Source of the DNA: Escherichia coli
GTDB lineage: Bacteria; Pseudomonadota; Gammaproteobacteria; Enterobacterales; Enterobacteriaceae
Direction: 5' to 3' (one strand)
Assembly: GCF_044324875.1 (NCBI RefSeq)
Contig: NZ_CP172185.1
DNA: 64,000 bases
Positions within the stretch are counted from its first letter, which is position 1. Each line of letters opens with the position of its first letter. A program made the translations under genes and the position numbers. Of this stretch, positions 11,393 through 49,665 are shown piece by piece. Under the pieces are notes generated by a model. That model was not told the DNA's origin and searched no databases. It saw nothing but the letters and a program-made list of their open reading frames with translations.

Positions 11393-11502
11393 TCATGAGA
11401 CTATTCTAACCGCTAAGCACAGAAAAGCACTCCCCTTTTGTGCGGTCAGCTTTGCGTGGCGTTCGTTTTCCGTCACAATAAGACTTTTGCCAGGACATTG
11501 TT

Positions 11503-12291
11503 ATGCAGGCCGAAATCCTTCTCACCCTTAAGCTCCAACAAAAATTATTCGCCGACCCGCGCCGCATTTCGCTACTAAAACACATTGCGCTTTCCGGTTC
11601 CATTAGCCAGGGAGCGAAAGATGCCGGTATCAGCTATAAAAGCGCCTGGGATGCCATTAACGAGATGAATCAGTTAAGTGAGCATATTCTGGTCGAGCGC
11701 GCAACAGGCGGTAAAGGTGGCGGCGGCGCAGTACTGACCCGCTATGGTCAGCGACTGATTCAGCTCTATGACTTACTGGCGCAAATCCAGCAAAAAGCCT
11801 TTGATGTGTTAAGTGACGATGACGCCCTGCCGCTGAACAGCCTGCTGGCCGCGATCTCACGTTTTTCACTGCAAACCAGCGCCCGTAACCAGTGGTTCGG
11901 TACCATCACCGCCCGCGATCATGATGACGTTCAACAGCATGTTGATGTCTTACTGGCTGACGGAAAAACACGCCTGAAAGTCGCAATTACCGCACAAAGC
12001 GGCGCGCGTCTGGGGCTGGATGAAGGCAAAGAAGTGTTGATATTACTAAAAGCGCCGTGGGTAGGCATTACTCAGGACGAAGCGGTCGCACAAAACGCCG
12101 ACAACCAATTACCGGGTATTATTAGTCATATTGAGCGCGGCGCAGAGCAGTGCGAAGTATTAATGGCGCTACCCGACGGGCAAACACTGTGCGCCACAGT
12201 GCCGGTAAATGAAGCGACTTCTCTTCAGCAAGGACAGAATGTCACGGCCTACTTTAATGCCGACAGCGTGATTATCGCCACGCTGTGCTAA
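11503..12291 (+). CDS. modE: Molybdate-responsive transcriptional regulator
   Basis: 262 aa; N-terminal HTH and C-terminal Mop domains; synteny. Confidence 0.9.
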   Translation: MQAEILLTLKLQQKLFADPRRISLLKHIALSGSISQGAKDAGISYKSAWDAINEMNQLSEHILVERATGGKGGGGAVLTRYGQRLIQLYDLLAQIQQKAFDVLSDDDALPLNSLLAAISRFSLQTSARNQWFGTITARDHDDVQQHVDVLLADGKTRLKVAITAQSGARLGLDEGKEVLILLKAPWVGITQDEAVAQNADNQLPGIISHIERGAEQCEVLMALPDGQTLCATVPVNEATSLQQGQNVTAYFNADSVIIATLC

Positions 12292-12358
12292 GCGTGTTGA
12301 CAATTTGTTATGAAACACGTATCCCTGTCAGTAATCGCTGCACAAAATGGGATATAAA

Positions 12359-36600: not shown

Positions 36601-37147
36601 ATCCCTCCTGTCGCGAAAAATGGCCTGCGTTATTGCCAGACGTAATAAAACTTTTGATTAACGTTTCTCGTACTGGTAGCACCTTCATGTACTTTTCTTT
36701 TTTACGAAAAATCAAAAGAGCTAACAAAGGTCATAATTCGCATGAATCATTAATTATTTGTTATTTTCAACATTATTTTTACATTAAGCAGAGATGAATT
36801 GCAGTGAAATTCGACTTAACTTTTATGAAATGCATTTACTCATGGCTAAAGCCACGTCACAAAAATGCAAATTAGAAGTAGATCACAAATATCTCAATAC
36901 ATCAAATCAAGTTAATTTTAAAAATTTAATATTCATGACATTAGTTGACATAACACACTGAATTATAATGAGAATTTGAAAACACACTTTAAACAATCAT
37001 TTCCCGAAAGACATTTTGAAAATAGATCAATTGCAACATTACGGTCAGATAAAGACACTCCTGTGATATTAAACCTGTGCCGTTATGAACGGCCATAAAT
37101 ACGACGTGTGTAACTTATTTTACTCTCTGTCTTACAAAGGATTACCC

Positions 37148-37597
37148 ATGAAGAAAGCAACACTTGTGATTGGCGTTATTGGCGCGGACTGCCATGCAGT
37201 AGGCAATAAAGTTCTGGACCGCGTTTTTAGCAACCATGGCTTCAGAGTCATTAATCTGGGCGTAATGGTCAGCCAGGACGAATATATTGATGCTGCCATT
37301 GAAACTGGTGCTGACGCGATTGTCGTCTCCTCTATCTATGGGCATGGCGATATCGATTGTCTGGGCATGCGCGAACGCTGCATTGAGCGTGGGCTGGGTA
37401 ACATCCTGCTCTATGTGGGCGGTAACCTGGTGGTCGGAAAACATGACTTCGCTGACGTGGAAACCAAGTTCAAAGAGATGGGATTTGATCGCGTCTTTGC
37501 CCCAAGTCATGACTTAGAAGATGTTTGTCAGCTGATGGCCCACGATATCAACCAACGTCATGACGTTGATACTCGCATTCTTGAAGAGGCAATCTGA
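37148..37597 (+). CDS. glmS: Glutamate mutase (methylaspartate mutase) S subunit, B12-binding
   Basis: B12-binding motif (GADCHAVG) and strong resemblance to clostridial GlmS/MutS; start at the ATG at 37148 (149 aa). Confidence 0.85.
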
Positions 37598-38985
37598 TGC
37601 AAATCGTCTCTGTCGATATTGGATCGACGTGGACCAAAGCAGCCCTCTTCGCCCGGGAGGGGGACGCGTTAACGTTGGTTAACCACGTACTGACCCCAAC
37701 CACCACCCATCATCTGGCGAAGGGTTTTTTCTCCAGCCTGAACCTGGTGTTAAACGTAGATAATGCCCTCCCCCTGTTTAACAACGGTGAGGTTGCATTG
37801 AAGTATTCCTCCTCTGCCAAAGGTGGGCTGGCGGTTGCCGCAATGGGGTTGGTGCCATCTATCACCCTGGAAACCGCGAAAGTAACCGCTCACTCTGCGG
37901 GGGCTAAAATTGCGCAATATTACGCCTACAAGCTGAACCGCCGTGATATCCAGGCACTGGAAGAAACGCAGCCCGATATTCTCTTGTTCACCGGCGGCAC
38001 CGACGGCGGAGAAGAAAGCTACGGCCTGAATAACGCCCGTGTGCTGGCAGAATCCAAACTCGACTGCGCCATTATTTATGCCGGAAACCGGGATATTCAG
38101 GACGAGGTGCAGGAGATCCTAGGGCATAAAGACCTGACCATCGTCGACAACGTTCTGCCCGATCTTGACCATCCGAACCCTTTAGCTGCACGCCAGGCTA
38201 TCTGCGACATATTCCTTAAACGCATCGTTAAAGGGAAAGGGCTGGATGTCATTGTTGATAAAACAGGCGAAGAACCAATGCCGACACCATGGACGGTCTT
38301 TGAACTGGTTAAGGCAATCAGTAACGTCGATCACAGCTGGAAAGAGTTCATGCTGATCGACATGGGCGGCGCAACCACCGATGTCTATTCAGCCTGTGCC
38401 AACACGCTCTCGCCCGACACCGTTTTACACGGCGTACCGGAACCCTTCGTGAAACGGACGGTGGAAGGCGATCTGGGAATGCGCGTCTCGGCAATGGTGG
38501 TTGGTGAAAGTGCGAAAGAGTTAGTCAATGTGAATTTTGCTCAGCAACCCGCACAGCTGGACGCTTTTTATCATTACCTCCGTCATCTAGTCGCTCATCC
38601 CGACTACTTACCCGCGAATGTAGAAGAAAAATATTTCGATACCGTCCTGGCCGGACTGTGTGTGGGTTATGCCACCGAAAGACATGCGGGCACCAAAAAA
38701 GAGGTCTGCACCTGCGTCGGCAATGTCGATTTACAGATGGGACGTGACCTGACAACCGTGCGTAAAGTCGTCGGATCCGGCGGATGGCTCTCGCGTGCCA
38801 GTCAGTTCGATATGCATCACTGGTTGAAATACCGCGAGTTAAACGACGACGGTAAACGCATTCTCTTACCGACCGAATTTGAATATTACCGCGATTCCCG
38901 GGGGCTATTACCACTGCTGGCAAACGTCGCCAGAGTCGATCCGCTGGCCGCCGCGCGCACCAGTATTCAATGCTTAACCCTATAA
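37597..38985 (+). CDS. glmL: Glutamate mutase-associated protein L (MutL/GlmL)
   Basis: 462 aa; start overlaps the glmS stop (TGATG); position between S and E subunits as in clostridial operons. Confidence 0.75.
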   Translation: MQIVSVDIGSTWTKAALFAREGDALTLVNHVLTPTTTHHLAKGFFSSLNLVLNVDNALPLFNNGEVALKYSSSAKGGLAVAAMGLVPSITLETAKVTAHSAGAKIAQYYAYKLNRRDIQALEETQPDILLFTGGTDGGEESYGLNNARVLAESKLDCAIIYAGNRDIQDEVQEILGHKDLTIVDNVLPDLDHPNPLAARQAICDIFLKRIVKGKGLDVIVDKTGEEPMPTPWTVFELVKAISNVDHSWKEFMLIDMGGATTDVYSACANTLSPDTVLHGVPEPFVKRTVEGDLGMRVSAMVVGESAKELVNVNFAQQPAQLDAFYHYLRHLVAHPDYLPANVEEKYFDTVLAGLCVGYATERHAGTKKEVCTCVGNVDLQMGRDLTTVRKVVGSGGWLSRASQFDMHHWLKYRELNDDGKRILLPTEFEYYRDSRGLLPLLANVARVDPLAAARTSIQCLTL

Positions 38986-39003
38986 CAATTAAGGCTGCAA
39001 TCA

Positions 39004-40449
39004 ATGGAACTTCGAAATAAGAAATTAACCCATGACGAATTCATGACCGAGCGGCAACAGGTACTGAAAACCTGGGAAACCGGCAAGGATGTTGAAAACT
39101 TTGAAGATGGCGTTAAATACCAACAAACCATTCCTGAGCATAAACGCTTCTCTCTTGTGCTGTTGAAAGCAGACAAGGAAGGTAAAACCCTTAGCCAACC
39201 GCGCGCAGGTGTGGCGCTGATGGACGAACACATCGAACTACTGAAAACACTACAAGAAGAGTGCGATCTGCTGCCGAGCACTATCGATGCATATACCCGT
39301 CTGAATCGGTACGAAGAAGCGGCTGTAGGGATTAAAAAATCCATCGAAGCCGGAACCTCTAAACTGAACGGTTTACCGGTCGTTAACCACGGCGTCGCAG
39401 CTTGCCGTCGCCTCACCGAAACTTTGCAAAAACCGCTACAGATCCGCCACGGCACGCCAGATGCGCGTCTGCTGGCTGAAATCTCGATGTCCAGCGGCTT
39501 TACCAGTTATGAAGGCGGCGGCATTTCCTACAATATTCCGTATGCCAAGCGCGTAACGCTGGAAAAATCGATCCGCGACTGGCAGTACTGCGACCGTTTA
39601 ATGGGGATGTATGAAGAACACGGGATCCGCATCAACCGCGAACCGTTTGGCCCACTAACGGGTACGCTGATCCCGCCGTTTATCTCGCACTCTATCGCGA
39701 TAATCGAAGGCTTGCTGGCGCTGGAACAGGGTGTGAAATCTATCACCGTTGGTTATGGACAGGTCGGCAGCCTGACGCAGGATGTTGCGGCGATCCAGTC
39801 TCTGCGTGAACTTGCACACGAATATTTTCAGAGCTATGGCTATACCGACTATGAATTAAGTACCGTGTTTCACCAGTGGATGGGCGGCTTTCCGGAAGAC
39901 GAATCGAAAGCGTTCGCTATTATCTCCTGGGGCGCAGCCGTCGCGGGGATGTCTGGTGCCACCAAAGTCATCACCAAAAGTCCGCACGAAGCCTGGGGTA
40001 TCCCGACTGCCGCTGCCAACATTCAGGGGCTGAAAGCCTCCCGCCAGATGCTCAACATGGTCAACGAGCAGAAATTCCCGCCGTGCCCTGCGGTTGAACT
40101 GGAAATTGAACTGATTAAGAGCGAGGTTCGCGCGGTACTGAATAAAGTGTTCGAACTGGGTAATGGTGATATTGCGCGCGGTACGGTGCTGGCATTTGAA
40201 GCGGGCGTACTGGATGTGCCGTTTGCGCCAGCCGCCTGCAACGCGGGCAAAATTCTTCCGGTCCGTGACAACACCGGCGCGATACGCGTACTGGAAGCCG
40301 GAGCCGTTCCATTGCCAAAAGATATTCTCGACCTCCACCACGATTACGTTGCGGAACGCGCACGCTTTGAAGGACGCCAACCGACATTCCAGATGGTTGT
40401 AGATGACATCAATGCTGTATCCCACAGTAAATTAATAGGAAGACCATAA
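39004..40449 (+). CDS. glmE: Glutamate mutase (methylaspartate mutase) E subunit
   Basis: 481 aa; extended similarity to clostridial GlmE (LPSTIDAYTR, GGGISYN, TVFHQWMGGFP, FQMVVDDI). Confidence 0.88.
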   Translation: MELRNKKLTHDEFMTERQQVLKTWETGKDVENFEDGVKYQQTIPEHKRFSLVLLKADKEGKTLSQPRAGVALMDEHIELLKTLQEECDLLPSTIDAYTRLNRYEEAAVGIKKSIEAGTSKLNGLPVVNHGVAACRRLTETLQKPLQIRHGTPDARLLAEISMSSGFTSYEGGGISYNIPYAKRVTLEKSIRDWQYCDRLMGMYEEHGIRINREPFGPLTGTLIPPFISHSIAIIEGLLALEQGVKSITVGYGQVGSLTQDVAAIQSLRELAHEYFQSYGYTDYELSTVFHQWMGGFPEDESKAFAIISWGAAVAGMSGATKVITKSPHEAWGIPTAAANIQGLKASRQMLNMVNEQKFPPCPAVELEIELIKSEVRAVLNKVFELGNGDIARGTVLAFEAGVLDVPFAPAACNAGKILPVRDNTGAIRVLEAGAVPLPKDILDLHHDYVAERARFEGRQPTFQMVVDDINAVSHSKLIGRP

Positions 40450-41690
40450 TGAAAATAAAACAGGCTCTGTTCACCGCTGGCTACTCCTCATTCTATTTCG
40501 ATGACCAGCAGGCGATAAAAAACGGAGCGGGTCACGACGGTTTTTTTTATACCGGGGAGCCGGTAACACAGGGGTTTAACGCCGTTCGTCAGGCCGGGGA
40601 GTGCGTATCGGTACAGTTGATTCTGGAAAACGGCGCGGTCGCCGTAGGTGACTGTGCTGCCGTACAGTATTCCGGGGCAGGTGGTCGCGATCCACTGTTC
40701 CTCGCAGAGCACTTTATTCCGTTCCTCAACGACCATATCAAGCCATTACTGGTAGGCCGCGATGTGGATGCTTTCCTGCCGAATGCCCGTTTCTTCGACA
40801 AATTGCGTATTGACGGCAACTTGCTGCATACCGCCGTGCGCTACGGATTATCACAGGCGCTGCTTGATGCTACCGCGCTGGCAACCGGCCGTCTGAAAAC
40901 TGAAGTGGTCTGTGATGAATGGCAGTTGCCACGCGTGGCGGAATCCATTCCATTATTTGGTCAGAGCGGCGACGATCGATATATCGCCGTCGATAAGATG
41001 ATCCTTAAGGGCATCGACGTGCTGCCCCATGCGCTGATTAATAACGTCGAAGAGAAGCTGGGCTTTAAAGGTGAAAAACTGCGCGAATATGTCCGCTGGC
41101 TGTCGGATCGTATTCTGAGCAAGCGCACCAGCGCACGCTACCACCCTACCCTGCACATCGATGTATACGGCACTATCGGTCTGATCTTCGATATGGATCC
41201 GCTTCGCTGTGCGCAATACATCGCCAGCCTGGAAAAAGAAGCGCAAGGCCTGCCGCTCTACATTGAAGGGCCGGTCGATGCTGGTAACAAGCCCGATCAA
41301 ATTCGCCTGCTGACCGCGATTACCAAAGAGCTGACACGCCTCGGTTCCGGCGTGAAAATTGTGGCCGATGAATGGTGTAACACCTACCAGGATATTGTTG
41401 ATTTCACAGATGCCGCCAGTTGCCACATGGTGCAAATCAAAACCCCGGATCTGGGCAGTATTCACAACATCGTCGATGCAGTTCTTTATTGCAACAGCCA
41501 CAGCATGGAAGCGTACCAGGGCGGCACCTGCAATGAAACTGATGTCAGTGCCCGCACCTGTGTCCACGTCGCCCTTGCCGCTCGCCCCATGCGTATGCTG
41601 GTAAAACCAGGGATGGGCTTTGACGAAGGCCTCGATATCGTCTTCAACGAAATGAATCGTACTATCGCGCTGTTGCAGGCTAAGGATTAA
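40449..41690 (+). CDS. mal: 3-methylaspartate ammonia-lyase
   Basis: 413 aa, enolase-superfamily-like; start overlaps the glmE stop (TAATG); typical MAL length. Confidence 0.8.
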   Translation: MKIKQALFTAGYSSFYFDDQQAIKNGAGHDGFFYTGEPVTQGFNAVRQAGECVSVQLILENGAVAVGDCAAVQYSGAGGRDPLFLAEHFIPFLNDHIKPLLVGRDVDAFLPNARFFDKLRIDGNLLHTAVRYGLSQALLDATALATGRLKTEVVCDEWQLPRVAESIPLFGQSGDDRYIAVDKMILKGIDVLPHALINNVEEKLGFKGEKLREYVRWLSDRILSKRTSARYHPTLHIDVYGTIGLIFDMDPLRCAQYIASLEKEAQGLPLYIEGPVDAGNKPDQIRLLTAITKELTRLGSGVKIVADEWCNTYQDIVDFTDAASCHMVQIKTPDLGSIHNIVDAVLYCNSHSMEAYQGGTCNETDVSARTCVHVALAARPMRMLVKPGMGFDEGLDIVFNEMNRTIALLQAKD

Positions 41691-41693
41691 CAA

Positions 41694-43064
41694 ATGGCTC
41701 GTTCTTTTAAAGTCTTATCGCCAACGGCAATCCTCGGGTATGGATTCCCGGAAGAGAGCTTCCGTAAAGCGATGGCAGAATCGCCCGATCTGATCGCCGT
41801 TGATGCAGGCTCTTCCGATCCAGGCCCCCACTACCTCGGGGCAGGCAAACCGTTTACCGATCGCGCAGGGGTCAAGCGCGATCTGCGCTATATGATCACC
41901 GCAGGCGTGCAAAATAATATACCGGTGGTGATCGGAACGGCTGGCGGTTCTGGTGCCGCACCACACCTGGAGTGGTGCCGAGAAATAATTCATGAGATTG
42001 CCCGGGAAGAGCAACTCGCGTTCTCGATGGCGCTGATCCCGGCAGACGTTGACAAAGCCATCGTCCACCAGGCGCTGGATAACGGCAAAATCACGGCGCT
42101 GGATTTTGTCCCGCCGTTAACCCACGACGCGATTGACGAAAGTACGTATATCGTCGCGCAAATGGGCATCGAACCCTTCCAGCGGGCGCTGAAAGAAGGC
42201 GCGCAAGTGGTGCTGGGCGGGCGCGCTTACGACCCGGCCTGCTTTGCTGCGCTACCGATCATGCAAGGCTTTGATGAAGGTCTGGCGCTGCATTGTGGGA
42301 AAATCCTTGAATGCGCGGCAATCGCCGCAACGCCCGGCTCAGGCTCTGACTGTGCGATGGGCATCATTGATGACAACGGCTTTACGCTGAAGACATTTAA
42401 TCCGAAGCGTAAATTTACCGAAACGTCAGCGGCTGCACACACACTGTATGAGAAATCCGATCCCTACTTCCTGCCTGGACCTGGCGGCGTGTTGAACCTG
42501 AAAGGCTGCACATTTAAAGCGGTCAATGACGGCGAAGTGTACGTCAGCGGTTCTAAGTATGAAGAAACGCCGTATTCCCTGAAACTGGAAGGTGCGCGAC
42601 GGGTGGGCTTCCGCTGTCTGACCATCGCAGGAACGCGCGACCCGATCATGATCGCCGGGATCGATAAAATCATTGATGAAGTCAAAACCAGCGTTTCGCG
42701 TAACCTGTCGCTCGACGATGACAGTATTCACATCAATTTCCACCTGTACGGCAAAAACGGGGTGATGGGCGACCATGAACCGATGCAAACTGCCGGGCAT
42801 GAGCTGGGGATTGTCCTTGATGTAGTTGCACCGACCCAGGAAATTGCCAATAGCGTTTGCTCGCTGGTGCGCTCTACCATGCTGCACTACGGCTATGAAA
42901 ACCGCATCGCTACCGCAGGTAATCTGGCGTTCCCGTTCTCCCCTTCTGATATCCAGGGCGGGCCGGTATACGAATTTTCCATATATCACCTGATTGAAGC
43001 CAACGACGCTCTGCGTTTTGATTTCCATATTGAACAGGTGACGCCAGAAGGAGTTCAGGCATGA
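41694..43064 (+). CDS. Conserved protein of unknown function, resembling the DUF1446 (AtuA-like) family
   Basis: 456-aa ORF starting 4 nt after the mal stop; family assignment from memory, not searched. Confidence 0.6.
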   Translation: MARSFKVLSPTAILGYGFPEESFRKAMAESPDLIAVDAGSSDPGPHYLGAGKPFTDRAGVKRDLRYMITAGVQNNIPVVIGTAGGSGAAPHLEWCREIIHEIAREEQLAFSMALIPADVDKAIVHQALDNGKITALDFVPPLTHDAIDESTYIVAQMGIEPFQRALKEGAQVVLGGRAYDPACFAALPIMQGFDEGLALHCGKILECAAIAATPGSGSDCAMGIIDDNGFTLKTFNPKRKFTETSAAAHTLYEKSDPYFLPGPGGVLNLKGCTFKAVNDGEVYVSGSKYEETPYSLKLEGARRVGFRCLTIAGTRDPIMIAGIDKIIDEVKTSVSRNLSLDDDSIHINFHLYGKNGVMGDHEPMQTAGHELGIVLDVVAPTQEIANSVCSLVRSTMLHYGYENRIATAGNLAFPFSPSDIQGGPVYEFSIYHLIEANDALRFDFHIEQVTPEGVQA

Positions 43065-43378
43065 AACAGTCAATTGTCTCACTGGCGCAAGTCATTCGTT
43101 CGAAAAATGCCGGACCTTACGAACTGGTTTTAGATATTTTATTTAAAACCAAAGAAAACTATGAGCGAGTTAAATCATCAGGGCAATTAACCCCAGAACT
43201 GATTGCGCGCTTATATCATGTTGAACCTGACTTTATTCATCGTATTGTCTGGTTTGATCCTTCTAACGCAGTAAAAATCGTCATGCCACGAGATATTATC
43301 TCCGGGAATGTAGGTGACAATGATGTCTATGGTGCACAGCAACATGCACCTTTATTAAATATGAGTTTCGATTTGTAA
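43061..43378 (+). CDS. Small conserved protein of unknown function (105 aa), likely the DUF4387-type partner
   Basis: ATGA overlap with the preceding gene; size and pairing typical of DUF1446/DUF4387 gene pairs as I recall them. Confidence 0.55.
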   Translation: MKQSIVSLAQVIRSKNAGPYELVLDILFKTKENYERVKSSGQLTPELIARLYHVEPDFIHRIVWFDPSNAVKIVMPRDIISGNVGDNDVYGAQQHAPLLNMSFDL

Positions 43379-43461
43379 AAATCCGAATACTTTTAGCCAA
43401 CTGACATCCCGTCACTTATTGCAGTTCAACACTTCAGCTATTTGTAAGGTTGTAATAGCAG

Positions 43462-43493
43462 GTAGATGCCTGAATCTCTATTCAGACATCTAC
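43462..43493 (+). terminator. Strong hairpin (gtagatg-ctgaat…attcag-catctac) with partial U-tract, between the DUF pair and the transporter
   Basis: 13-bp stem with one mismatch followed by ttctcctgattctgattt; seen directly. Confidence 0.45.
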
Positions 43494-43538
43494 TTCTCCT
43501 GATTCTGATTTATCGCCGTGCACCTGATGGAGGAAAAA

Positions 43539-44819
43539 ATGAAGAAAATAAGTTTAACCACGATGATTCTTTTGGCACTGGTACTTGGAATGATTATCGG
43601 CGTAGTGCTCAATAACACTGCTTCACCGGAAACCGCAAAACTCTATGCGCAAGAAATATCGATATTCACGACGATTTTCTTACGACTGATAAAAATGATT
43701 ATCGCTCCGTTAGTGGTCTCTACCCTGGTGGTAGGTATAGCTAAAATGGGCGATGCCAAAGCCCTTGGTCGTATTTTTTCTAAAACACTCTTTTTATTTA
43801 TTTGCGCCTCATTGCTGTCAATTGCCTTAGGCTTGATAACAGTAAATTTCTTCATGCCAGGCACAGGAATTAATTTTGTTGCACACGGAGCCGAAACCAC
43901 CGGAGTGGTCGCGTCAGAACCCTTTACGCTAAAAGTATTTATTTCGCATGCTTTCCCCACCAGCATTGTCGATGCCATGGCGCACAATGAAATTTTGCAA
44001 ATCGTAGTGTTCTCAATTTTCCTCGGCTGTAGCCTGACGGCGATTGGCGAGAAAGGCAGCGCCATCGTTCACGCCTTAGATTCGCTGGCACATGCCATGT
44101 TAAAGCTCACTGGCTACGTCATGCTCTTCGCTCCCCTGACCGTATTCGCCGCTATTTCAGCATTGATTGCTGAACGAGGACTGGCAGTTATGGTGAGCGC
44201 CGGGATCTTTATGGGTGAATTTTATTTCACCATGTTGTTACTTTGGGTGCTGCTTATCGGTCTGGCCATCGTTTATGTCGGCCCCTGCATCAGACGCCTG
44301 ACCCGCGCCCTTTCGGAACCCGCTCTGCTGGCATTTACCACATCCAGTTCTGAAGCGGCTTTTCCGGGAACGCTTGAAAAACTGGAGCAATTTGGCGTTT
44401 CCCCCAAAATTGCCAGCTTTGTCTTACCCATTGGCTACTCATTTAATCTCGTTGGATCAATGGCCTACTGCTCCTTCGCCACAGTTTTCATCGCCCAGGC
44501 CTGCAATATCCATTTATCCATCGGTGAGCAAATCACCATGCTGTTGATCCTGATGTTGACCTCGAAAGGAATGGCTGGCGTACCACGCGCCTCAATGGTG
44601 GTTATCGCCGCCACGCTCAACCAGTTCAATATTCCGGAAGCGGGGCTGATCTTGCTGATGGGCGTTGATCCGTTCCTTGATATGGGGCGTTCCGCGACAA
44701 ACGTCATGAGCAACGCAATGGGCGCTGCGATGGTGAGTCGGTGGGAAGGCGAACATTTCGGCGAGGGTTGTCGGGGTAAAGCATTAAAACCCAATGAATC
44801 GAACGTTGCTCTGCCCTGA
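43539..44819 (+). CDS. Dicarboxylate/amino-acid:cation symporter (GltP/DctA-like)
   Basis: Polytopic membrane protein with DAACS-like motifs; GGAGG RBS before the ATG at 43539 (426 aa). Confidence 0.8.
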   Translation: MKKISLTTMILLALVLGMIIGVVLNNTASPETAKLYAQEISIFTTIFLRLIKMIIAPLVVSTLVVGIAKMGDAKALGRIFSKTLFLFICASLLSIALGLITVNFFMPGTGINFVAHGAETTGVVASEPFTLKVFISHAFPTSIVDAMAHNEILQIVVFSIFLGCSLTAIGEKGSAIVHALDSLAHAMLKLTGYVMLFAPLTVFAAISALIAERGLAVMVSAGIFMGEFYFTMLLLWVLLIGLAIVYVGPCIRRLTRALSEPALLAFTTSSSEAAFPGTLEKLEQFGVSPKIASFVLPIGYSFNLVGSMAYCSFATVFIAQACNIHLSIGEQITMLLILMLTSKGMAGVPRASMVVIAATLNQFNIPEAGLILLMGVDPFLDMGRSATNVMSNAMGAAMVSRWEGEHFGEGCRGKALKPNESNVALP

Positions 44820-44926
44820 GGGGGATCTTAAGCAATCAGAAGCCAATGACTACGCATTTTTATAAGCCGGATCATGAAGTTAGACGGCAATTAAGTAACA
44901 CTAACGTTTAAGGTGAAAAGTGAAAT

Positions 44927-46579
44927 ATGTCCAAACCATTTATCTGGCAAGAACCGTTTCTACAAAATAAAGACGGTACAGAATATACATTAATTAGCGA
45001 TCAACATATTACAGTAACGGAATTAGACGGCGAAGAAGTGATAAAAATCGCTCCTGAAGCATTAACGCTGCTTGCCCGGCAGGCATTTTATGAAGCCTCT
45101 TTTTTCTTACGTTCCGCTCATTTGCAACAGGTCGCCAGCATTCTTAACGATCCGCAGGCCAGTAGTAATGATAAATACGTTGCGTTGCAGTTATTACGTA
45201 ATGCTGAAGTCTCAGCAAAAGGGGTATTACCCAACTGTCAGGATACCGGCACCGCAACTATTGTTGCCAGTAAAGGGCAACAGATATGGACGGGAGGTAA
45301 CGACGCTGAAGCCTTAAGCAAAGGCATTTACAGTACTTTCCAGGAAAATAATCTGCGCTTTTCACAAAATGCGCCGCTGGATATGTATACCGAAGTCAAT
45401 ACGCAAACCAATCTCCCGGCGCAGATTGATATCAGCGCTGTCGCTGGTAATGAGTACCATTTTCTCTGTGTTAATAAAGGGGGCGGCTCCGCCAATAAAG
45501 CCGCACTTTATCAGGAAACCAAATCCTTATTGCAACCAGAAAAACTGACCGCATTTTTAATCGAAAAAATGAAATCGCTGGGCACCGCTGCCTGCCCGCC
45601 TTACCACATCGCCTTTGTCGTCGGAGGGCTTTCAGCCGATCAAACCTTAAAAGTTGCCAAGCTGGCCTCTACGAAATATTACGACAATTTGCCCACCAGC
45701 GGAAACGAGCAGGGACAAGCATTCCGTGATATTGAGCTGGAAAAAGTGTTGCTCGAGGTCAGTCAGCAATTTGGTATTGGTGCGCAATTTGGGGGTAAAT
45801 ATTTCGCTCATGATATTCGCGTCATTCGTCTGCCGCGTCACGGTGGCTCTTGCCCGATAGCTATGACGCTCTCCTGTTCTGCCGATCGCAATATCAAAGC
45901 AAAAATTAACAAGCACGGTATCTGGCTGGAAAAACTCGAACACAATCCGGGGCAATATATTCCAGCCTCACTGCGGGAAGAAAATCACGCGCAACATGTA
46001 CAACTGGATCTAAACCGTCCGTTGCGTGACGTGATGCAGGATCTCGCCAGATTACCGGTAGGCACCCGCGTGTCGTTAAGTGGTCCCATCGTAGTGGCAC
46101 GCGATATCGCCCACGCCAAAATAAAAGCGCGGCTGGATAACGCCGAACCGATGCCGGATTACCTGAAGCATCATATTGTCTATTACGCTGGCCCGGCGAA
46201 AACACCGGAGAACATGGCCTGCGGTTCACTGGGTCCAACCACGGGCGGTCGAATGGACGGTTATGTCGATACCTTCCAGGCGGCTGGCGGCAGTCTGGTG
46301 ATGTTATCGAAAGGTAACCGCAGCCAGCAGGTCACCGATGCCTGTCACAAACATGGTGGCTTCAATCTGGGTAGTATTGGCGGTGCAGCTGCGTTACTGG
46401 CGCAAGAATATGTCAAAAGTCTGCGTTGCCTGGAATACCCGGAGCTGGGTATGGAAGCGGTGTGGATGATGGAAGTGGAAAATCTGCCCGCATTCATCCT
46501 GGTAGATGATAAAGGCAATAATTTCTTTAGTCAGTTTGAGCAGCAACACCGCTGCGCCAGTTGCCCTGCGGGACATTAA
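44927..46579 (+). CDS. fumD: Class I (Fe-S) fumarate hydratase paralogue; FumD-type mesaconase/fumarase
   Basis: 550 aa, alignable by eye with FumA along the whole length; clustering with glutamate mutase and methylaspartase matches published FumD. Confidence 0.8.
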
Positions 46580-46588
46580 GGAAAATGA

Positions 46589-47191
46589 ATGGAAGCGCGA
46601 ATTTCAACTGAACGGCATGTGCAGCGCCAGCAGAAATTGAAGGAACAGGTCGATACGCGCATCGCGGCGGCGATAGAGAAAAAAGGGATTTTGATTGTTT
46701 TCACCGGCAATGGCAAAGGGAAATCCACTGCCGCGTTTGGTACTGTGACGCGCGCGGTGGGTCATGGCAAAACGGTGGGGGTTGCGCAGTACATCAAGGG
46801 GCAATGGGACAACGGCGAATACAACCTTCTCCAGCCGCTGGGGGTTGAGTTTCATATTATGGGAACCGGTTTTACCTGGGAGACACAGAACCGGCAAGCG
46901 GATATCGACGCGGCGAAAGAGGTCTGGTCGGAAAGCAAACGGATGCTGGCTGACAAGCGTTACGACTTAGTGGTGCTTGATGAGCTGACCTATATGCTGG
47001 CTTACCATTATCTGGATACCGAAGAAGTGATCGCTTCTCTGCAAAACCGCCCGGCACAACAAAGTGTCATTGTCACCGGACGCGGTTGCCACAGTCAGAT
47101 ATTAAAAATGGCGGATACGGTCAGCGAAATCCGCCCCGTCAAACATGCTTTTGATAACGGCATTCAGGCCCAGCCGGGTATCGACTGGTAA
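46589..47191 (+). CDS. Cob(I)alamin/cob(I)yrinic acid a,c-diamide adenosyltransferase paralogue (BtuR/CobO-like)
   Basis: 200 aa; P-loop (GNGKGKSTAAFG) and close resemblance to E. coli BtuR. Confidence 0.85.
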   Translation: MEARISTERHVQRQQKLKEQVDTRIAAAIEKKGILIVFTGNGKGKSTAAFGTVTRAVGHGKTVGVAQYIKGQWDNGEYNLLQPLGVEFHIMGTGFTWETQNRQADIDAAKEVWSESKRMLADKRYDLVVLDELTYMLAYHYLDTEEVIASLQNRPAQQSVIVTGRGCHSQILKMADTVSEIRPVKHAFDNGIQAQPGIDW

Positions 47192-47194
47192 TAA

Positions 47195-47221
47195 CTGCGC
47201 CTGGCATCCCGCCAGGCGCAG
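47195..47221. terminator. Bidirectional hairpin (ctgcgcctggc…gccaggcgcag) between convergent cobO-like and LysR genes
   Basis: 11-bp perfect stem followed by gtttta; seen directly. Confidence 0.6.
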
Positions 47222-47224
47222 GTT

Positions 47225-48130
47225 TTACATCTCCTGCGGTACAACCGATTTCGCCAGCAACCATTCACGAAATTGCTGCAAGTGCGGTGAGTCAGACTTC
47301 TCTTCCTGCCACGTCATAATAAAACGATTACCGGTACGAATAGGCACATCACAGGGGATCACCATATCGCCACTATCCAAATCATGTTGAATAGCGAAAC
47401 GTGGTAACAGCGCCACGCCGAGATTAGAGCGCACGGCGGCAATCAGCATTGAAAGCAAATCGAAACGTGGTCCGTTGTTGACCAGCGGACTGCTAACGCC
47501 AGATAAGGCAAACCACTCTTCCCAGCCAGTAATACGGGTACTTTGATGCAGAAGTGGTAACTCTGTAAGCAGTTCTGCCACTGACAGTTTTTGATCGGAC
47601 ATTGCAAGCAAACTGCCGCTGCATACCGGCAAAATCTCCTCATCAAAGAGATATTCTACTTCCGCCCAGGGCGCGCAAAAATTTTCGCGCATAATGACAG
47701 CATCGTACTCCCGATTAAGAAAATCGCCGTTATTAGCTAAAGAGTGAATATTAACAATAATATCGGGATGTAACTTTGTGAATTCATGTAAATTTGGGAT
47801 TAACCAGTGGGTACTAAACGTAGGATTCACGGCAAGTTCAATAACCTGAACCGTAGGCTGCCAGGTCATAATGGTATTGGTATCGCGTTCCAGCTTATTT
47901 AATGTTTCTTTTACTATCCCCAGGTAATACTTCCCTGCATCATTAAGAAAAATACGTTTTTTAGAGTGTGAAAATAACGGAGTATGTAAAAATTCCTCCA
48001 GCGCACTCACTTGTCTGAATACTGCACTTTGGGTCAACGCTAACTCCTCTGCCGCTTTGGTATAACTTTCATGACGTGCGACGACCTCAAAAGTCACCAG
48101 CAGCTCCGTTTTAGGTATTTTTCCTCGCAT
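47225..48130 (-). CDS. LysR-family transcriptional regulator
   Basis: 301 aa; N-terminal HTH (YTKAAEELALTQSAVFRQVSALEE). Confidence 0.85.
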   Translation of the reverse strand: MRGKIPKTELLVTFEVVARHESYTKAAEELALTQSAVFRQVSALEEFLHTPLFSHSKKRIFLNDAGKYYLGIVKETLNKLERDTNTIMTWQPTVQVIELAVNPTFSTHWLIPNLHEFTKLHPDIIVNIHSLANNGDFLNREYDAVIMRENFCAPWAEVEYLFDEEILPVCSGSLLAMSDQKLSVAELLTELPLLHQSTRITGWEEWFALSGVSSPLVNNGPRFDLLSMLIAAVRSNLGVALLPRFAIQHDLDSGDMVIPCDVPIRTGNRFIMTWQEEKSDSPHLQQFREWLLAKSVVPQEM

Positions 48131-48169
48131 AATGCCGTCCCTTAAAAATAGTTTAAACCATCAAAAATA

Positions 48170-48191
48170 CATTACTTATTACGAAGTAATG
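48170..48191. promoter_or_regulatory. Perfect 22-bp palindrome CATTACTTATTACGAAGTAATG upstream of the LysR gene
   Basis: 8-bp inverted arms around a 6-bp spacer, 40-60 bp upstream of the start codon. Confidence 0.45.
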
Positions 48192-48693
48192 GTAACCAAA
48201 GCAGCAATAAATAATTTATAAGAATCATGATTGACATTTATAACCCAGTAAGCCTGGCGTGACAAATATCTTAATCAGATAATAATAATCCGAAAAGCAC
48301 AGCGCCTTTCGAATTATCCGGAATCACATTAAGTGAAAATTATTAAATTGATATCATTTATCATATCTGTGGATATTATGATAAACAATCAACAAAGATT
48401 TTATTTTTGATTTATAGCATATCCCTCTAAGAATTTTTGCGATGCTGCAATATCCGGGGTAAAGACCCGATCCTGGCTGACAAATGGCACGACTTGACGA
48501 TAAGCGGTGAACATCGCTTTTGTTGATTTACTTAACGCTACGGTCAAACGCTGGGAAGCCAGTGCATCAGGTAACGATTCGAAATTCGCCGTCGTTCTTA
48601 TTCGTGGCTTGCGGTCGGTTGCGGCAATCCACAGTGGCTGTGGTCATGCAGTCAAGCCAGCGGTCAGATTTCGACCGTGGTTAACATTTAAGG

Positions 48694-48720
48694 CATAAAA
48701 AAGGCCATCATACGATGGCC
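48694..48720 (-). terminator. Rho-independent terminator after sucD (ggccatc…gatggcc plus U-run)
   Basis: Hairpin then TTTTTTTAT on the minus strand. Confidence 0.7.
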
Positions 48721-48795
48721 AACCATGTCGAAACCGACAACCCTTCGCCATTCCTGTAGAGGGAAGCGGCGAGGGCTATTTCTTATTACAGATAT
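48694..48795 (-). ncRNA. sdhX: sucD 3' UTR, the region from which the SdhX (RybD) sRNA derives in E. coli
   Basis: Position only (between the sucD stop and its terminator); I could not verify the sRNA sequence from memory. Confidence 0.35.
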
Positions 48796-49665
48796 TTATT
48801 TCAGAACAGTTTTCAGTGCTTCACCGATATCCGCCAGGCTGCGAACGGTTTTCACGCCTGCGGCTTCCAGAGCAGCGAATTTCTCATCCGCAGTCCCTTT
48901 ACCACCGGCAATGATGGCACCCGCGTGGCCCATACGTTTGCCTTTCGGCGCAGTCACACCAGCGATGTAACCCACAACAGGCTTGGTAACGTGCTCTTTG
49001 ATGTACGCAGCCGCTTCTTCTTCAGCGCTACCGCCGATCTCACCGATCATCACGATCGCTTCGGTCTGCGGATCTTTTTCGAACATTTCGAGAATGTCGA
49101 TAAAGTTAGAGCCAGGGATCGGATCGCCGCCGATACCAACACAGGTCGACTGACCGAAACCGTAATCCGTGGTCTGTTTAACCGCTTCATAGGTCAGTGT
49201 ACCGGAACGGGAAACGATACCCACTTTACCCGGTTTGTGAATGTGACCCGGCTGGATACCGATTTTGCATTCACCCGGAGTGATAACGCCTGGGCAGTTC
49301 GGGCCGATCATACGAACGCCAGCTTCGTCCAGTTTCACTTTCACAGTCAGCATATCCAGCGTCGGGATGCCTTCAGTGATGGTGATAATCAGTTTGATGC
49401 CTGCATCGATGGCTTCCAGAATGGAGTCTTTGCAGAACGGTGCTGGTACGTAGATAACAGAAGCGGTAGCGCCAGTAGCAGCAACAGCTTCACGCACGGT
49501 GTTGAACACCGGCAGGCCGAGGTGGGTGGTGCCGCCTTTACCTGGGGTTACGCCGCCAACCATTTTAGTGCCGTATGCAATGGCCTGTTCTGAGTGGAAA
49601 GTCCCCTGGCTACCGGTAAAGCCCTGGCAGATAACCTTGGTGTTTTTATCAATTAAAATGGACAT
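48796..49665 (-). CDS. sucD: Succinyl-CoA synthetase alpha subunit
   Basis: 289 aa; synteny. Confidence 0.95.

Follow-up and report, generated by a model that had tools for sequence, protein, structure and literature searches.

A DAACS-family transporter gene in the methylaspartate island of Escherichia coli, predicted to import an acidic amino acid by proton symport

The locus reported here is the gene cluster from which FumD was characterised as a mesaconase/fumarase, and the key genes of which are reported from 90.6% of O157:H7 strains as well as from many Enterobacterales that are opportunists (Kronen & Berg 2015, PMC4682846). Its gene order, glmS-glmL-glmE-mal-DUF1446(AtuA)-...-GltP-FumD-CobA-LTTR, is that of the present island. 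In the same study the transporter was drawn as 'GltP, glutamate transporter' from annotation only (Fig. 5 legend), no conditions were found for induction of the cluster in E. coli or for growth on glutamate, and the fate of citramalate was left open; the AtuA/DUF4387 pair has since been named CmlAB (PDB 9erq/9evf). Both the transporter gene and its presumed role with glutamate are therefore already known, as published there. The study further notes that methylaspartase activity had been reported in enterobacteria before, Citrobacter amalonaticus and Morganella morganii among the species. E. coli is unable to synthesise B12 de novo, and this may account for the earlier failures to observe activity. 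Literature searches on the pathway and on the Sakai and EDL933 locus tags returned no functional study, whether of uptake or of binding, of this transporter or a close relative. The present analysis leaves the basic picture of the island unchanged, and adds residue-level and comparative support for the uptake of an acidic amino acid, the completeness of the block, and an aspartate-to-valine change in the NMDG motif.

The analysed window is a stretch of 64,000 nucleotides of E. coli (contig NZ_CP172185.1, assembly GCF_044324875.1). The island lies on the chromosome between cydA and sucD, an interval that in K-12 contains mngR-mngA-mngB instead, and consists of two hypothetical ORFs, glmS, glmL, glmE, mal, an AtuA-family gene, a DUF4387 gene, the transporter gene, fumD, cobO, and a convergent LysR-family gene. 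The glutamate mutase and reactivase genes (glmS, glmL, glmE) and mal, encoding methylaspartate ammonia-lyase, occupy 37148..41690 (+), as annotated in RefSeq at a 99%-identical locus. They are followed by the AtuA-family (456 aa) and DUF4387 (105 aa) genes at 41694..43378 (+), which have Pfam matches to those families and match chains A and B of PDB 9erq/9evf over their full lengths, with the A chain about 90% identical. In the depositions these chains are named 'Citramalate lyase, subunit A (cmlA)' and 'subunit B (cmlB)', and by these matches the two ORFs are orthologues of the two-subunit citramalate lyase CmlAB. With CmlAB present, the block is predicted to encode every step that takes glutamate to pyruvate, acetate and NH3. 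To the right of the transporter gene, fumD and cobO occupy 44927..47191 (+), assigned from NCBIfam and RefSeq. The fumD product (mesaconase/fumarase) scores 1279.6 bits with NCBIfam NF011921, for which the cut-off is 1060, and cobO encodes cob(I)yrinic acid a,c-diamide adenosyltransferase. Next comes the convergent LysR-family regulator gene at 47225..48130 (-), which RefSeq, profile and synteny data show to be conserved with the cluster. An earlier note on this sequence placed the transporter gene between the mutase/lyase genes and fumD, and this is borne out, with glmS-glmL-glmE-mal on its upstream side and fumD on its downstream side. The note passed over two ORFs that intervene between mal and the transporter gene, the AtuA-family and DUF4387 ones (41694-43378).

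The transporter (426 aa) is encoded by a DAACS/SDF-family gene at 43539..44819 (+), which coincides with the RefSeq CDS WP_000724204.1 ('dicarboxylate/amino acid:cation symporter'). The enclosing ORF spans 43518-44819 (+) and the CDS starts at the ATG at 43539, preceded at a spacing of 5 nt by a Shine-Dalgarno sequence, GGAGG (43529..43533, +), of which GGAG is kept in the orthologous gaps across the Escherichia-Citrobacter-Salmonella group. Comparison with orthologues from Escherichia sp., Citrobacter and Salmonella gives dN/dS values of 0.047-0.052, with dS near saturation. The gene is real and under strong purifying selection.

The transporter gene is separated from its same-strand neighbours by gaps of 160 nt (upstream) and 107 nt (downstream), and a search of these two gaps for promoter-like sites found none. 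A strong terminator-like hairpin is seen only after cobO (47195..47221, +; 11 bp, 9 of them GC) and is the probable end of a glmS-to-cobO transcription unit, in which the transporter gene would be co-transcribed with the enzymes that its product would feed. A stable intercistronic stem-loop, which complicates this reading, is predicted by folding in the cmlB-transporter gap (43460..43495, +), about 45-80 nt upstream of the transporter ATG; it has a 9+6 bp stem and a 4-nt loop, and is not followed by a U-tract. Similarly placed hairpins with different stem sequences are present in Citrobacter, Enterobacter, Lelliottia, Buttiauxella, Salmonella and Pluralibacter, and the structure may modulate processing or relative expression. 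A scan of positions 34300-48800 against Rfam (E<=0.1) found no RNA family and hence no known riboswitch or leader.

An orthologue scan with one genome per species returned 80 loci. Where identity is 74% or more (about 50 Enterobacterales species), the orthologue immediately follows glmS-glmL-glmE-mal(-cmlA-cmlB) or immediately precedes fumD-cobO in every case but one, and the departures from the usual arrangement include an orphan copy in Trabulsiella and one MAG that lacks cmlAB. The genera with a syntenic transporter gene include Escherichia, Citrobacter, Enterobacter, Lelliottia, Buttiauxella, Pluralibacter, Salmonella (S. arizonae), Yokenella, Pseudescherichia, Morganella, Yersinia, Hafnia and Budvicia. 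Relatives with 57% identity or less (Chitinophaga, Zymomonas, Crenothrix, and assorted MAGs) have no cluster genes nearby. Among complete E. coli genomes the transporter gene is present in 1121 of 5426, about a fifth, and the counts for glmE-mal and for fumD are the same (each at 80% coverage or more). The transporter gene is accessory in the species, whereas the housekeeping gltP gene is core (5420 of 5426). That the transporter is dedicated to the methylaspartate block, as the earlier note had it, is well supported by the strict synteny in about 50 species and by these matching genome counts.

Assignment to the GltP/DctA (DAACS) family is confirmed by a Pfam SDF match (PF00375, E=2.2e-102) in which residues 6-402 cover the entire profile (1-387/387), and the protein is related to both GltP and DctA. 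Residues 5-406 are collinear with residues 2-391 of AncInt, a reconstructed ancestral aspartate transporter, and residues 8-404 with 14-417 of GltPh, through TM1-TM8, HP1 and HP2; these are the closest solved structures (AncInt, E=1e-68; GltPh, about 1e-54; PDB 1xfh, 9bgz, 9bh0). Scores with the NCBIfam models are all far below the curated cut-offs, at 302 bits against 638 for GltP (equivalog NF008440), and at 312 against 513 and 275 against 570 bits for DctA (NF002461 and NF009587 respectively). A division into GltP-like or DctA-like by overall similarity was tried and dropped, since 302 and 312 bits, both below cut-off, do not separate the two, and the choice therefore falls to site-specific residues.

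In GltPh, which is Na+-coupled and aspartate-selective, the substrate is held by D394 at its alpha-amino group and by R397 at its side-chain (distal) carboxylate. Alignments to GltPh and AncInt and to GltP and DctA place the codons for D381-M-G-R384, which were verified, in TM8 at 44679..44690 (+), with D381 and R384 equivalent to D394 and R397. Together with D377 and N388, which align with GltPh D390 and N401, they complete the acidic-amino-acid pattern D-x3-D-x2-R-x3-N. At the D381 position, where the island transporter has L-D-M-G-R, a serine stands in E. coli DctA and in all of the DctA-type sequences recovered (M-S-E-A-R). Because D381 and R384 are both kept, an acidic amino acid is favoured over mesaconate or citramalate as the cargo, although the homologues used in these comparisons are only about 33-40% identical. 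The earlier note called for a binding-site comparison with characterised DAACS members and left the substrate as either glutamate or a C5 dicarboxylate. The comparison places the pocket in the acidic-amino-acid type of GltP and GltPh, without the DctA-type serine, so the amino-acid half of that proposal is favoured and the C5 half is disfavoured.

An arginine in HP2 (R350, within GVPRAS) was considered as a distinguishing oddity and set aside as typical of a large amino-acid-type branch; an arginine of this type is present in 58 of 81 D381-type representatives and 1 of 16 others, counts that are not corrected for phylogeny. The gene contexts of the nearest Asp-bearing outgroups, in Zymomonas and Chitinophaga, were uninformative. 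A near outgroup in one gammaproteobacterial MAG adjoins a gene with tandem Asp/Glu racemase domains, in keeping with an acidic amino acid.

Transport of a C5 dicarboxylate would nevertheless make sense of part of the gene arrangement, either as uptake of mesaconate or citramalate for scavenging by FumD and CmlAB or as release of these products. The transporter gene is directly upstream of fumD, and in Morganella there is another paralogue, some 35 kb away from the first, that travels with fumD-cobO (directly upstream of them) and apart from the mutase genes. Members of the family can carry C5 diacids, in that deletion of dctA2 abolishes mesaconate uptake in Methylorubrum extorquens (PMC9529712; DctA2 is by name a homologue of DctA), and with NCBIfam the score for DctA is marginally above that for GltP. 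However, D381 is kept where all DctA-type sequences seen have a serine, and an unpaired carboxylate beside a dianionic substrate would be unfavourable. The TM7, HP2 and TM8 motifs of the fumD-linked Morganella paralogue are identical to those of the mutase-linked copy, which does not suggest a separate specificity. The upstream half of the pathway, beginning at glutamate, is also complete in the cluster, and a putatively secreted glutaminase encoded beside the transporter in other species points to amino-acid input. We regard a C5 dicarboxylate as a distinctly unlikely substrate.

The glutaminase gene, recognised by Pfam, is immediately after the transporter gene in 29 loci, all in species other than E. 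coli; the E. coli island has no such neighbour. Its product has a conserved, signal-peptide-like N-terminal extension (e.g. MNKAMIGVSLFTFSVLFSTATLA|QP) and is apparently exported. This neighbour fits a scheme in which periplasmic glutamine is converted to glutamate prior to uptake.

The pocket residues are less informative within the acidic amino acids, as D381 and R384 would suit aspartate or 3-methylaspartate equally with glutamate. A main substrate of L-threo-3-methylaspartate or L-aspartate would be in keeping with the D381/R384/N388 pocket, which is the aspartate-binding one of GltPh and AncInt, and Mal, whose gene is in the operon too, also acts on 3-methylaspartate. Against this, the B12-dependent mutase and reactivase genes are always in the cluster, and the adenosyltransferase gene is in most genera, yet all three are needed only for entry from glutamate. 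The glutaminase neighbour would likewise yield glutamate, and free 3-methylaspartate is not, to our knowledge, an abundant gut nutrient. We therefore think it unlikely that either compound is the main substrate in place of glutamate, while a broad specificity for glutamate, aspartate and methylaspartate is quite possible and compatible with glutamate import.

The residues that determine cation coupling have been delineated for the glutamate transporter family by Reddy et al. 2025 (PMC12668577). In GltPh numbering, the Na+ sites comprise [S/T]92-93, N310, [M/S]311, [D/E]312 and [D/E]405, and the H+-coupled clade has the signature [A/L/I/V/M/F]92, L311 and N405 with a putative protonation site at S279E. 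The island transporter has this full H+-clade signature (A90, L304, N392 and E272), and its Na+-site set is incomplete (A90-S91, N303, L304, V305, N392). The tip of HP1 is serine-rich, with S269-S270-S271-E272 aligning with R276-S277-S278-S279 of GltPh; E272 (codon 44352..44354, +; within 'SSSE') corresponds to S279 and is, from the alignment and the assignment of Reddy et al. 2025, the putative protonation site. Proton symport is the default prediction for the transporter.

One feature is unusual. In TM7 the sequence NLVGS (44445..44459, +) replaces NMDG(T) or NLDG(T), such that in N303-L304-V305-G306 the Asn and Gly are retained and the conserved Asp, equivalent to GltPh D312, is Val; the codons were verified. 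V305, and a serine at the G391 position beside N392, do not vary among the cluster-linked orthologues, whereas NLDG and GN are kept in the nearest outgroups. Among 97 related 50%-cluster representatives, 26 have neither Asp nor Glu at the V305 position, and V305 is only marginally coupled to G391S or to R350 among the representatives (Fisher p about 0.06 each). The idea that a non-Asp residue here tracks the methylaspartate pathway outside the Enterobacterales was rejected, as the two cases examined have unrelated contexts: representative P0125 (NLTG) adjoins genes for a class-I (Glu/Gln-type) aminoacyl-tRNA synthetase and an alanine racemase, and the neighbours of P0128 (NLVG) are unrelated genes. 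V305 appears to be a lineage feature, and coupling or specificity may differ from those of characterised members.

The valine raises the question of whether the transporter is coupled to a cation at all, since loss of the carboxylate equivalent to D312 might leave an uncoupled carrier or a precursor/product exchanger, taking up glutamate, for example, and releasing an acidic product. Fermentative pathways often use precursor/product antiport. The invariance of V305 in the cluster-linked clade, with Asp in its nearest outgroups, would fit such a mode, as would the changes of T92 to Ala and D405 to Asn and the existence of a natural Na+-independent intermediate state in the family (Reddy et al. 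2025, PMC12668577). Set against these are the complete H+-clade signature, with the putative protonation site E272, and the occurrence of non-Asp residues at this position in unrelated contexts among the 26 representatives, which is not specific to the pathway. An uncoupled or exchanging transporter is accordingly very unlikely in our estimate. A related and rather doubtful scenario is that the lineage, on its recruitment to the cluster, lost the last carboxylate of the ancestral Na1/Na3 site (NMDG Asp to Val, along with G391 to Ser) and became a 'cation-site-erased' glutamate transporter, with a single proton at E272 or an uncoupled or exchange mode. A clade naturally without the NMDG aspartate is in any event a handy test case for the role of this residue in proton-coupled members.

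Taken together, these comparisons suggest that the transporter is probably a proton-coupled DAACS importer of an acidic amino acid, most likely L-glutamate. The first enzyme of the cluster uses L-glutamate, which supports glutamate import at the entry to the pathway. In the proposed scheme, external glutamate would enter via the transporter, with substrate, coupling and direction all as predicted above, and would be converted to 3-methylaspartate by GlmSE, together with GlmL and adenosylcobalamin made by CobO. Mal would then form mesaconate and NH3, FumD would convert mesaconate to (S)-citramalate, and CmlAB would cleave citramalate to pyruvate and acetate. Many sister genera would also gain periplasmic glutamate from glutamine, through the putatively secreted glutaminase encoded beside the transporter. 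E. coli already has glutamate carriers, the core gltP product among them and GltS and GltIJKL besides, and the need for another is not obvious, which counts against a glutamate importer.

The earlier note proposed that the transporter substrate decides whether the block serves glutamate fermentation or C5-dicarboxylate scavenging. This is weakened by the presence of CmlAB, which completes the route from glutamate to pyruvate and acetate, so that the view of the block as serving C5-dicarboxylate scavenging alone loses most of its force. The island, which is present in about one in five complete E. coli genomes, would provide for the entire conversion of external glutamate or glutamine to pyruvate, acetate and ammonia. 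This pathway is open to testing and could matter in gut colonisation.

Among characterised transporters, E. coli GltP (glutamate/aspartate:H+ symporter, b4077) has the same length as the island transporter and is 39% identical over 422 residues. The two share TM8 L-D-M-x-R-x-x-x-N...N, HP1 SSSE and TM7 N-L-x-G, and H+ coupling is predicted for the island transporter as well. They differ in that GltP has NLDG, GVPGVS and, in TM3, 'YFE..TT', where the island transporter has NLVG, GVPRAS and 'FLFICAS', and they are not orthologues, as the NF008440 score of the island transporter is below cut-off. E. coli DctA (C4-dicarboxylate/orotate:H+ symporter, b3528) is 37% identical and also has HP1 SSSE and N-L-x-G, but its TM8 has M-S-E-A-R, with Ser at the island D381 position, and its HP2 has GVTGSG. 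The substrate-binding residues D394, R397 and N401 and the HP1 serines of GltPh, GltTk and AncInt are conserved in the island transporter, whereas the Na+ sites of GltPh are dismantled (T92->A, M311->L, D312->V and D405->N).

Two ORFs at 41694–43378, immediately upstream of the transporter gene in the methylaspartate island, encode an AtuA-family (DUF1446) and a DUF4387 protein and are orthologous to the pair in PDB entries 9erq and 9evf, titled 'Citramalate lyase subunits CmlA/CmlB'; the A chain of these entries and the AtuA-family ORF of the window are ~90% identical. RefSeq gives both ORFs generic names only, and their function was unknown in the description of the enterobacterial cluster by Kronen & Berg 2015 (PMC4682846). 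With this assignment, the final reaction that the methylaspartate pathway of enterobacteria had lacked is accounted for. A stable intercistronic stem-loop (43460–43495) lies between cmlB and the transporter gene; it is not followed by a U-tract and may play a part in processing or stability. Hairpins with different stem sequences are present near the equivalent position of this gap in at least six other genera.

The organization around the transporter gene varies among species. At 29 loci (L009, coordinates 11455–12591, and 28 others), a glutaminase gene (PF04960) is situated between the transporter gene and fumD; the N-terminus of the encoded protein is conserved and resembles a signal peptide. 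These loci belong to Citrobacter, Enterobacter, Lelliottia, Buttiauxella, Pluralibacter, Yokenella, Hafnia, and other genera, whereas E. coli, Salmonella arizonae, Morganella, and Yersinia lack the gene. The Morganella cluster (loci L035–L039 and L041 compared with L043–L045, L048, and L049) is split into two halves, glmS to cmlB and fumD-cobO, separated by ~35 kb. Each half has its own transporter paralogue (78% and 74% identical to the E. coli protein); dN/dS between the two is ~0.10 and their binding-site motifs are the same. In an Enterobacteriaceae MAG (L040) glmS-glmL-glmE-mal is followed directly by the transporter gene without cmlAB, and Trabulsiella odontotermitis (L030) has an orphan transporter copy (80% identity), within 10 kb of which there are neither genes nor remnants of the cluster.

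In searches of 5426 complete E. coli genomes, the two parts of the island, 37148–43064 and 43539–46579, differ in how often they have near-identical matches. The glmE-mal segment has ≥99% identity to only 59 E. coli records, whereas the transporter segment does so to 1024; similarly, glmL through cmlA are 98.1–98.8% identical to the RefSeq-annotated locus L001, and the transporter gene and fumD 99.7–99.8%. These differences between segments suggest that the island is mildly mosaic through recombination within it. One E. coli genome contains the island segments twice, with one copy on a plasmid-classed record. A 7.3-kb contig labelled as a Collinsella sp. MAG (L004, JAIJJM010000101.1) spans mal to cobO with proteins 98–100% identical to those of the E. 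coli island. It almost certainly derives from Escherichia and was assigned to an actinobacterial MAG by a binning error.

Between cydA and glmS there is a stretch of low GC content (~38–41%) with two ORFs of 314 aa (35153–36097) and 140 aa (36178–36600), both annotated as hypothetical in RefSeq and neither with a Pfam match; Escherichia sp. L005 has a homologue of the former (50% identity). The sucD-cydA interval contains the methylaspartate island in the window (34350–48796), whereas in K-12 (765153–770611) it contains the mannosylglycerate utilisation genes mngR-mngA-mngB. A single chromosomal site thus carries one or the other of two accessory cassettes.
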